A DNA stretch of 64,000 nucleotides, from NCBI GenBank assembly GCA_016839705.1, contig JAEOTR010000048.1, positions 1 to 64,000 on the forward strand. The letters run 5' to 3'. Source of the DNA: Promethearchaeota archaeon. Its GTDB lineage: Archaea; Asgardarchaeota; Lokiarchaeia; Sigyniarchaeales; SOKP01. The position numbers and the translations under genes were made by a program. The notes under the pieces are model-generated. The model worked only from the letters and a program-made list of their open reading frames with translations. It was not told the origin of the DNA and searched no databases. Shown one piece after another: positions 43,120 to 46,764 of this stretch (positions are counted from its first letter, which is position 1; every line of letters begins with the position of its first letter).

Positions 43120-44241
43120 CTAAAGTAAATTAGGTGGAATCCCCTCATCAAAATATTTTACACGGGATATCCAGTTTTCTGAAAATTCCGGGATCTTTGC
43201 TAATATAGAACCTCCAATCCATACAGAAAAAGTTCTCTCTTGAGGAGCAATAATTCTTACGCTCTGGTTTTTTTTCTTCCTCCTGGCTAATTCAAGTTCT
43301 AATTCCTGATACATTCTTGATTTTAAATTAGGAAACATTGAAGAACCACCACTTAAAAAAATATTATTTAATAATTCTGGTCGAATATCCAAATCACAAG
43401 CTTCTATTACATCCAAAATTGCCACCGGTAGGGAATCCTCCTCTAATTCAGGAGATGGATTAAATAAAAGCTCTGGAACTATAAACCGTTCATTATGCAA
43501 TGAGATTGTTGAACCATCTGGTAAAGAATAGTCTTTATTATACTGTTCACTTCTTTTCAAATCCTCTTTATAATCTAAAGAAACAAAACAAGCTTTTTCT
43601 TTTAAAACTCTTACTAATTCTCTTCGAATAGAAGAATCAACCGACCAGCCAATAGATTCCAAGATTTTTTCCATATAATGAGTCAGTACCCTACCCCCAA
43701 TTTCTAGAATTCTTACCGCATGATTTAATTTATATCCTTCATAAATGGGTACAATTCTGGTATTGCTATCTCCAATTTCAATAATTAAACCTGTTTGAAA
43801 TCCCCCTGAATATAAAGTAAGCATCGAATCTAAAACAGGATAAAAATTCATACACTGAAGTCTTCCTAAAAAAAGTTCAAAAATTTTTTCCAAATCCTTA
43901 CGGGGGAATAAGGGATGGACGGCTAGTAGGACATTAACTAGAGAGGGATCAACTCTTAAATTATAGAAAATATAATCCACAATGTTTTCAAAATGCTTCC
44001 AATCAATAATAATCCCTTTTTCTATTGGATGAAAAATCTTATAAAGGCCAATAGATTGGATTTCATCTCCTACATAAAGTTCATCTTCTCGACTTTTAGC
44101 AGTTGAATAATCAATGCTTACACTTTGATATTTCGGTTTCCCAACCATCGTTAAGAAAACTTGAGCTGGAGAATCCTCTCCTGCAAATCCTATTTTAGTA
44201 GAAAATTGGCCAATATCAATAACAACAGTAAGATTTACCAT
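43120..44241 (-). CDS. Actin-related protein (divergent Asgard actin paralogue)
   Basis: VVIDIG..STKIGFAGEDSP, YVGDE, IVPIYEGY, LKEKACFV, YSLPDG, ERFIVPELLF, LSGGSSMFP, SVWIGGSILA. Confidence 0.93.
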   Translation of the reverse strand: MVNLTVVIDIGQFSTKIGFAGEDSPAQVFLTMVGKPKYQSVSIDYSTAKSREDELYVGDEIQSIGLYKIFHPIEKGIIIDWKHFENIVDYIFYNLRVDPSLVNVLLAVHPLFPRKDLEKIFELFLGRLQCMNFYPVLDSMLTLYSGGFQTGLIIEIGDSNTRIVPIYEGYKLNHAVRILEIGGRVLTHYMEKILESIGWSVDSSIRRELVRVLKEKACFVSLDYKEDLKRSEQYNKDYSLPDGSTISLHNERFIVPELLFNPSPELEEDSLPVAILDVIEACDLDIRPELLNNIFLSGGSSMFPNLKSRMYQELELELARRKKKNQSVRIIAPQERTFSVWIGGSILAKIPEFSENWISRVKYFDEGIPPNLL

Positions 44242-45333: not shown

Positions 45334-46065
45334 TTATTCTCCGCGCATAATCTTTTTCAAACGGTTAAGCTCATCGAGCATCTCATCACGAAGAGAGCTT
45401 AAACCACCCCCCGTTTGAGGGGCTGCTGCTGCCGGAGGTGCTCCAGGTGTTTGAGGTGGACTAGCTGGAGGTGTGGCTCGTGGACCACTTGGAGGTGCGG
45501 CTGGTGGACCACTTGGTCTTTTCGCGAACGCAGGAGTTGCTGTTGGAGGTATAGGTGGTGCACCAGAGCTTGGAGCTTTAGGTGGTGCACCAGAGCTTGG
45601 AGCTTTAGGTGGTCCCGATGGAGGTAATTTTGGAGCAGGTGGTAGACTGCCGGCTTTCGGTGGGCCGCTAGGCGGTGCACTCGGTGGCGCACTAGGAGGC
45701 CCTGCAGGAGCCTTAGGCGGGCCACCACTAGTAGGAGGTACTGGTGCTGCGGTTAGTGATGCTGGTGCTGTTGTTGGTGCTGCTTGGCTTTCAGCACCCC
45801 CACTTAAAAGAGAAAACAAAGTACTAGCTGCTGCAGTTTTGGCGGTCCCCGATGATGAGGCAACAATCTTTTTCGAGGAAGTACTAACAGTTTGGACGTC
45901 TTCTCCAACAGTAATTTCCTTTAAGTCTTTTTGGGCTTTTGATAATGACTTGATAAAATCATTAATTCCTTTAACTGTTTCTCCTAAGTCATCAGCGAGG
46001 CTAGTTAAGCCTTTTTTCATAAAATTAATAACACGTTCGATCTTTTTTTGTTCTTTTGAAACCAC
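45334..46065 (-). CDS. Proline-rich protein with N-terminal coiled coil and C-terminal WH2/EVH2-like amphipathic helix
   Basis: GTG start; heptad-like aa 5-52; P/A/S/G-rich aa ~97-216; ends GGGLSSLRDEMLDELNRLKKIMRGE. Confidence 0.75.
   Translation of the reverse strand: MVSKEQKKIERVINFMKKGLTSLADDLGETVKGINDFIKSLSKAQKDLKEITVGEDVQTVSTSSKKIVASSSGTAKTAAASTLFSLLSGGAESQAAPTTAPASLTAAPVPPTSGGPPKAPAGPPSAPPSAPPSGPPKAGSLPPAPKLPPSGPPKAPSSGAPPKAPSSGAPPIPPTATPAFAKRPSGPPAAPPSGPRATPPASPPQTPGAPPAAAAPQTGGGLSSLRDEMLDELNRLKKIMRGE
45554..45613. repeat. Perfect 27-bp tandem duplication (encodes KAPSSGAPP twice)
   Basis: GGTGGTGCACCAGAGCTTGGAGCTTTA at 45554-45580 and 45581-45607, followed by GGTGGT. Confidence 0.95.
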
Positions 46066-46488
46066 GTCTCACTCAATTCCTCTGATTATGTTGTAATTAT
46101 GATTATAATTTTTATTATTAGTATTTTAATTATATTAATATCTATATATATAATAGACTTTTTCGTAATTTACTTATTGATATTTTTTTTTAAAATTTTT
46201 TTTTATAATTGCATTATAATTGTTTGATTATAAAAAATTATGTAGGTTTCGTATTGAACGTGTGATATTCATAGATAAAAAGAGAAAAAGCGATATTATT
46301 CGTAAATGATTTTTTAATCCCTCCTTAAATGATTCTTGAAACTACACAGTTTCCCAATCGTAAAAAAACGTTAATTATTAAAAAACCTAAACTAATAATA
46401 TTATATAACATATTTCATTAGTAAGTTTAAAAATTTTAAAAAATTCAATCCTCCAAAAATTCTTCAGAATTGAATAAATATAAAATAG

Positions 46489-46764
46489 GTGTTCAAAATA
46501 CCAAAACGAGAACTTTTTATTAAGCGGGTCTATGAGATCGTCAATGAGCTTAAAATCCCATTAATTGATGAGAGAGTATATGACAAAGTAAATTTCAATA
46601 CGGGAGCTTCAATCGCTAACGTAATTTTTAGATTCGAGGAAGATGAGTCAGTAATCCGAGGGTTTCTTGGTCTTGCGGAATATTTTCACACTGTGGTGAT
46701 CAAGAAAAAAGACGAGTTCTATATTCCGCATGCTTCAATTTTATTTCGTTTGCTGAGCGCATGA
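46489..46764 (+). CDS. Hypothetical protein
   Basis: 91-aa ORF with globular composition, followed by a T-tract. Confidence 0.7.
   Translation: MFKIPKRELFIKRVYEIVNELKIPLIDERVYDKVNFNTGASIANVIFRFEEDESVIRGFLGLAEYFHTVVIKKKDEFYIPHASILFRLLSA

Follow-up and report, generated by a model that had tools for sequence, protein, structure and literature searches.

Asgard archaea crawl by means of Lokiactin-filled protrusions, and the regulators of their actin that are on record so far are mainly profilins and gelsolins (PMC13716822). The two-domain gelsolins of these archaea contain a WH2-like linker, LKDV (bioRxiv 10.1101/2025.11.30.690169). Among the closest described systems, Ena/VASP proteins have an EVH1 domain, GPPPPP runs and the three elements of EVH2. 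In WASP, WAVE and WIP, the amphipathic WH2 helix comes after a proline stretch, breaks and is accompanied by a conserved LKK[TV]. In Pyrobaculum, arcadin-2 (PDB 5LY3), which is encoded near an actin gene, uses a C-terminal helix to occupy the hydrophobic groove of an actin homologue (PMC5173319).

Here we describe a family of Asgard proteins that, by the tests run, works at most like Ena/VASP or arcadin-2 and is a member of neither. The explanation that we tentatively put first is that these proteins are multivalent, membrane-near adaptors of the Asgard actin cytoskeleton, present at low abundance and docking on Lokiactin through a C-terminal helix (hereafter, the end helix). The head of the protein would cluster several copies, by a coiled coil in the member studied here and by transmembrane helices and a hairpin at the membrane in Thor-, Atabeya- and Heimdall-type genomes. 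A proline arm would then serve as a long flexible tether, its short motifs being available to accessory partners, and the end helix would bind the surface of Lokiactin, most plausibly at the hydrophobic groove used by arcadin-2 and by WH2- and WASP-C-type helices. Such a cluster could capture or hold filaments near the membrane, acting as a stripped-down Ena/VASP without being one. The likeness to arcadin-2 is one of layout: both are archaeal and have a C-terminal helix. Arcadin-2, however, is a sequestering depolymeriser, likely dependent on a Trp, whereas proteins of the present family carry a proline arm and are in some lineages anchored in the membrane.

A proline-rich protein family of Asgard archaea

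The gene at 45334-46065 on the reverse strand of the window (the whole stretch of 64,000 nucleotides that was analysed) starts with GTG and encodes 243 aa; its host is an Asgard archaeon of Lokiarchaeia type. It is a true gene and represents the soluble form of a family that has no earlier description and of which most Asgard archaea carry a member. Its GC content of 50% exceeds the roughly 31% of the window, yet third codon positions have only 25% GC, which fits a coding frame rich in Pro, Ala and Gly. The protein has 215 homologues, the nearest being hypothetical proteins named Promethearchaeota or Lokiarchaeota, and as a single query it matches 231 of the 400 genomes of the Asgard phylum. 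Neither Pfam nor the PDB sequences nor the ESM Atlas names the family (the ESM Atlas matches are Promethearchaeota clusters without names). No description of it was found in searches of an open-access library, nor in the passages searched of articles on Asgard actin regulators and ESCRT. An antisense open reading frame overlapping the gene (45473-46096, forward strand) was set aside and is taken to mirror the Pro/Gly-rich strand. In genome G138, taken to be that of Lokiarchaeum ossiferum since its gene masses match the proteomics table of that organism, contigs from RNA libraries (four samples, one study) span two thirds of the orthologue from its 5′ end. Three of the four samples show a gap in this cover between the start of the gene and the adjoining gene, which would agree with transcription, short of proof. 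About 22 kb from that orthologue lies an open reading frame of 9,599 aa (G138:C1:752843-781642, forward strand).

According to an AlphaFold2 model built on a 24-sequence alignment, the protein begins with one long amphipathic helix (residues 4-53, 45907-46056; pLDDT 84-95). The profile of this head matches generic and designed multi-helix coiled coils, and the helix is probably an oligomerising coiled coil. A short middle helix follows, modelled with low confidence (residues 74-87, 45805-45846); it contains the segment STLFSLLSGG with its LFxLLS motif, and distant members have a comparable hydrophobic helix ahead of the arm. The arm itself (residues 97-218, 45412-45777) is disordered and basic: its 122 residues include 46 prolines, 17 PP pairs and neither a PPP triplet nor an acidic residue. 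The end helix (residues 222-240, 45346-45402; pLDDT 79-93) closes the chain. All the elements listed in the original prediction are thus present, from the N-terminal coiled coil and the STLFSLLSGG motif through about 120 aa of xPP repeats, in which prolines never go beyond doublets, to the terminus at 45411-45337.

The arrangement of the arm prolines, singles or pairs throughout, is characteristic of close relatives as well. In the arms of 121 of them, PPP triplets occur 8 times, against 294 expected from shuffles, so PPP is avoided in the arm; the longest proline run is two residues in 113 of the 121, and GPPPPP is not among them. Two short motifs are strongly conserved in the same 121 arms. 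The first, LPPAPKLPP (residues 141-149, 45619-45645), belongs to a pattern, PP[AP]P.LP, found in 113 arms (1.3 expected) and resembles the profilin loading site of Ena/VASP, PPPAPPLP, in the form in which PMC8410842 quotes the VASP peptide. It was seen in Promethearchaeales only and not in distant members. The second, FAKRP (residues 180-184, 45514-45528), represents the pattern F.KR, present in 115 arms (0.2 expected). Profilin-recruiting runs of at least five prolines were not found in the protein. Its prolines come in doublets only, and Loki profilins were reported to lack polyproline binding (PMC8410842), which makes it doubtful that this member loads profilin in the classical way.

The end helix and its comparison with eukaryotic motifs

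The original prediction had named a lack of conservation in the C-terminal helix as a reason for abandoning it; that objection falls away, because the end helix shows strong conservation throughout the Asgard archaea. Residues 219-242 are almost invariant among the 121 close relatives. A profile of the last 36 residues finds matches, nearly always in one copy, in 342 of 400 Asgard genomes, and in 83 of the 90 of high quality. Among 96 distinct variants, L225, M229, E232, R235 and L236 vary little or not at all, a constancy that the search pattern partly imposed, with R226, R235 and K237 loosely or not constrained by it. A hydrophobic stripe (222/225/229/233/236/240) runs unbroken along the helix, and the conserved face is about 220 degrees wide, with E as well as R/K on its flanks. 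From these features we infer that the end helix, the conserved putative docking element of the family, is a binding element. Searches of the PDB and Pfam with its profile returned only generic coiled-coil or OAR-motif noise.

The end helix is also portable. In an exhaustive search of representatives, it occurs two or three times in a row in some proteins, follows Ras/Roc GTPase domains in others, and elsewhere comes ahead of a cysteine-rich zinc domain. The host genome contains a second carrier of the latter kind (G000:C1:51621-52085, reverse strand), in which the helix precedes a CPxC...CCxC zinc domain, and this pair of helix and zinc domain is found after Ras/Roc GTPase domains as well as together with tandem helices. 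In a metagenomic protein, P0176 (549 aa), a shortened version of the entire gene is fused with a transmembrane helix and a TIR domain (PF13676, E 6e-18).

A sister gene in the host genome (G000:C25:35812-36264, forward strand; L111:7813-8265), with homologues in Loki, Thor and Odin genomes, encodes 150 aa comprising a coiled coil, a five-proline run, a near-invariant end helix and a basic tail. The two end helices are related (hhalign 80%, E 1.4e-5), and that of the sister protein looks more like the F-actin site of VASP; its profile, searched against the PDB and Pfam, again gave only generic coiled-coil or OAR-motif noise. With its five-proline runs, the sister protein is the better candidate for classical profilin loading. 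Two further genes of the host genome were noticed: one encodes a protein with a Pro-rich N-terminus, a coiled coil and a zinc ribbon (G000:C49:95781-96773, forward strand) and the other an acidic protein with a ten-proline run (G000:C92:1781-2446, forward strand).

The terminus had been read as fitting WH2 with its LKKT-type motif, on the strength of RDEMLDEL-NR-LKKI, though with a linker shorter than the canonical one. With WH2 proteins the family shares an amphipathic helix after a proline stretch, but LKKI belongs to this one member, and both the helix break and the conserved LKK[TV] are missing. The second K of LKKI, at position 238, is variable (K in 39% and E in 21% of the 96 variants), L-[KR]-[KR]-[TV] occurs in 0 of the 96, and the end helix of the AlphaFold2 model, which represents the unbound chain, continues through LKKI. 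The Pfam WH2 profile (PF02205) matches neither the protein nor 32 end-helix sequences, and in five genomes it does not pick the family locus even at E up to 10. Given also the worst score of the five motifs compared below, we reject a WH2 identity for the end helix.

When five eukaryotic motif peptides, that of the VASP tetramer helix agreeing with 1USE, were scored against the end-helix profile, the VASP tetramer helix reached 21.5, MIM1 15.2, the VASP F-actin site 14.3, the N-WASP C motif 4.1 and WH2 2.3. None of these scores amounts to a claim of homology, because 36 of 911,876 decoy windows from the genome itself reach even the highest; the score of the N-WASP C peptide is equalled by 1.4% of decoy windows. 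The proposed likeness to the F-actin-binding site of VASP survives in part: the peptide of that site aligns in register with the end helix, but 604 decoy windows score as high, so the match is not significant. The profile search suggested for VASP gave no support, as the profile of the Ena/VASP tetramerisation domain (PF08776, VASP_tetra), run on five genomes, failed to select the family locus even at E 10.

The wider idea of a WASP- or Ena/VASP-like architecture holds for the layout of coil, proline arm and amphipathic end helix behind GGG, and not for membership of the WH2 or WASP families. With Ena/VASP the protein shares a proline tether, a Gly-rich lead-in, an amphipathic helix and a probable oligomeric state; the arm motif that resembles the loading site, and the agreement in register of the helix with the F-actin site and with the tetramer helix (1USE), may add to the likeness. 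Unlike Ena/VASP, it has its oligomerising coil at the N-terminus, one end helix in place of the three EVH2 elements, no GPPPPP runs and no significant profile match. EVH1 was not found, the N-terminus being a single long helix in the model and without a Pfam match. Nor was the W-C-A tail of WASP/WAVE: the protein stops three residues past the helix and has no acidic tail and no Trp.

That the best-scoring peptide comes from a tetramerisation domain raises another reading of the end helix, as a self-assembly tag that would form a short homo- or hetero-oligomeric bundle like that of VASP and make no contact with actin; family members, the sister protein and the helix-tagged GTPase, zinc-domain and TIR proteins would then join one scaffold. 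The wide conserved face with its E and R/K flanks and the grafting of the helix onto unrelated signalling proteins would suit such a tag. We nevertheless consider it somewhat unlikely, in view of the decoy windows that score as high as the VASP helix, the failure of the VASP_tetra profile and a helix roughly half as long as the VASP domain in a protein that already has a coiled-coil head.

Membrane-anchored relatives and gene neighbourhoods

The same end helix terminates three architectures. The soluble, coil-headed form is found in Lokiarchaeia, in Odinarchaeum (WEU40329.1) and elsewhere. Proteins of Thorarchaeota (MGD9394989.1), Atabeyarchaeum (WXG45876.1) and some genomes of Heimdall type have a membrane anchor at the N-terminus, and a protein of Heimdallarchaeota (UCG03553.1) has 8-10 transmembrane helices. 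In a genome of one Heimdall-type family (f16), this multi-transmembrane form is present as two tandem paralogues (L051/L056, G060:C169). Common to the membrane forms is a helical hairpin whose profile matches PDB 8WHN, a 'Ribophorin 1 superfamily protein', at E 1e-8, and, less well, the steadiness box of Tsg101 (6VME, E 0.12) and Pfam Vps23_core (E 0.087). The host genome also encodes a Ribophorin-I-like membrane protein (G000:C49:133389-135248, forward strand) with two terminal steadiness-box-like hairpins of the same type.

Many Asgard multidomain proteins carry a steadiness box (PMC11188069), and the combination of hairpin, linker and terminal motif recalls the ESCRT-I steadiness-box proteins (Tsg101/Vps23, Vps37) and CdvA. 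The family might on this basis be an ESCRT-type membrane-remodelling adaptor, its head joining steadiness-box proteins or the membrane and its end helix recruiting a helical-bundle partner such as the MIT domain of Vps4 or ESCRT-III, in the manner of CdvA and of ESCRT-I subunits. The resemblance is confined to the membrane relatives: no steadiness-box-like hairpin was found in the soluble protein, whose head gave an hhalign value of only 1.4% against the membrane-form hairpin, and the hairpin is not specific to ESCRT, since ribophorin carries it as well. The MIM1 motif of ESCRT-III tails has the consensus [DE]xxLxxRLxxL[KR]. The end helix agrees with it in hydrophobic spacing (229/233/236) and in K237, yet R226 and the invariant E232 occupy the D/E and R positions, reversing the charges. 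The motif P[ST]AP occurs 109 times, against 40 expected, an excess that can also stem from repeat expansion. No ESCRT gene was recognised among the neighbours in the loci examined, and one family has ESCRT-III in 7/7 genomes yet no end helix. On balance, we regard an ESCRT adaptor as unlikely.

The neighbourhood of the soluble form points to a different candidate. A conserved gene of 91 aa (46489-46764, forward strand) keeps its place beside it in several Asgard lineages, although the orientation changes; the product is a highly conserved alpha/beta protein (AlphaFold2 pLDDT 91) with no Pfam match and no hit at Z of at least 5 in a fold search. The end helix could dock on this protein or on another conserved Asgard protein, such as a small GTPase or a roadblock or longin domain, and serve in a signalling scaffold that has nothing to do with either actin or ESCRT; its fusion to Ras/Roc domains would also speak for this. 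Such a role seems to us quite improbable, as the loci examined showed no 91-aa gene next to the membrane forms, although these keep the same helix; the loci of the membrane forms mostly adjoin genes for ribose-5-phosphate isomerase, a PIN-ATPase and a tRNA-endonuclease-like protein (named by eye).

On its other side, the family gene is followed downstream by a co-oriented gene for a divergent actin-family protein of 373 aa (43120-44241, reverse strand; PF00022, E 9e-89), with a gene of the opposite strand in between. This is one of three actin-family genes of the host genome, the others being Lokiactin on contig C32 (G000:C32:98128-99273, reverse strand) and a zinc-ribbon-bearing one on contig C27. 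The paralogue is 42% identical to the Lokiactin, its catalytic Gln is replaced by Asp, and its phosphate loops are altered. It lies beside the family gene in 29/33 loci of the host family and in 0/46 loci of other families, as counted with flanks of 1.5-7 kb and with some genomes counted twice. A true nucleation-promoting factor of the WH2/WASP family dedicated to this neighbour, which the layout and the co-orientation in the host family would suit, is very improbable: the WH2 features looked for and an acidic tail are missing, and the paralogue is linked to the gene in one family only, while the helix is phylum-wide.

Lokiactin as the candidate partner

Docking on Lokiactin heads the list of readings. 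In its favour are the distribution of the end helix, its occurrence in membrane-anchored and in tandem forms, the existence of the sister protein, the arm motif resembling a VASP loading site, the actin paralogue next door and the example set by arcadin-2. The near-universal and mostly single-copy occurrence of the helix parallels that of Lokiactin, and its tandem copies recall the nucleators with tandem WH2 motifs. Other observations tell against actin: the helix is not a WH2 motif, it appears in sequence closer to the VASP tetramer helix than to any actin-binding motif, PPP is avoided in the arm, the actin neighbour is missing from the 46 loci outside the host family, and the protein is absent from a Lokiactin co-IP.

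The last point concerns the L. ossiferum orthologue, whose tag, GNAMCCOK_00620, was deduced from gene order and monoisotopic masses with 00612, 00629, 00657 and 00673 as anchors. It is not among the stored co-IP rows, which extend from the most enriched proteins down to a log2 ratio of -1.06 (bioRxiv 10.1101/2025.11.30.690169); all tags from 00614 to 00624 are likewise missing from these rows. The check is a weak one, because the orthologue is also missing from the top ~2,000 rows of the proteome and may be scarce in the cell. The authors of the co-IP moreover note a bias against membrane-associated proteins (bioRxiv 10.1101/2025.11.30.690169). The sister protein (tag about 02220-02223) is not in the stored rows either; it was barely detected, and its absence is hence uninformative. 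Separately, a 330-aa coiled-coil protein encoded about 20 kb from the orthologue, GNAMCCOK_00612 (G138:C1:708410-709402, reverse strand), has a co-IP log2 ratio of 1.9 (P 0.001), as have many proteins to a similar degree, and is missing from that paper's identifier table of named proteins.

A group of genomes in which no end helix was found bears on the choice between actin and ESCRT. It comprises 14 genomes from four families, one identified as Njordarchaeia. Actin is detectable in 12 of the 14 and is 50-55% identical to Lokiactin; the four sequences aligned have Val and Ser at the groove positions matching T148 and G168 of actin. Gelsolin gives only weak single-domain matches in the helix-less genomes, as against matches in 10/10 helix-bearing controls, most of them strong, and profilin is found in 2/14 as against 7/10 controls. 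ESCRT-III is what one of these families retains in all seven of its genomes. The phyletic pattern thus leans to actin over ESCRT, although three genomes that are 93-96% complete and have a typical actin show no detectable end helix, and the pattern in the Njord lineage may reflect a single loss or event in a fast-evolving lineage. In another set of genomes (G292-G296, family f25; 75-83% complete), actin is present and no Snf7/ESCRT-III match was obtained.

Whatever the partner, the phylum-wide conservation of the end helix suggests a core cell-biological interaction, one that was probably present in the Asgard ancestor. A more far-reaching proposal, possible but doubtful, is that the family represents an ancestral, phylum-wide Asgard factor for the tethering or elongation of actin. 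It would be an oligomer, membrane-anchored or held by a coiled coil, with a proline arm and an actin-binding helix that predates WH2; it would be a functional forerunner of Ena/VASP- and WASP-type factors and, in some lineages, would link actin to membrane remodelling through its ESCRT-I-like hairpin. The question on which the family bears is how Asgard actin filaments start or are held at the membrane. A near-universal, mostly single-copy family with a near-invariant helix of 19 residues at the end of an often membrane-anchored arm offers a direct and cheap candidate for testing it.
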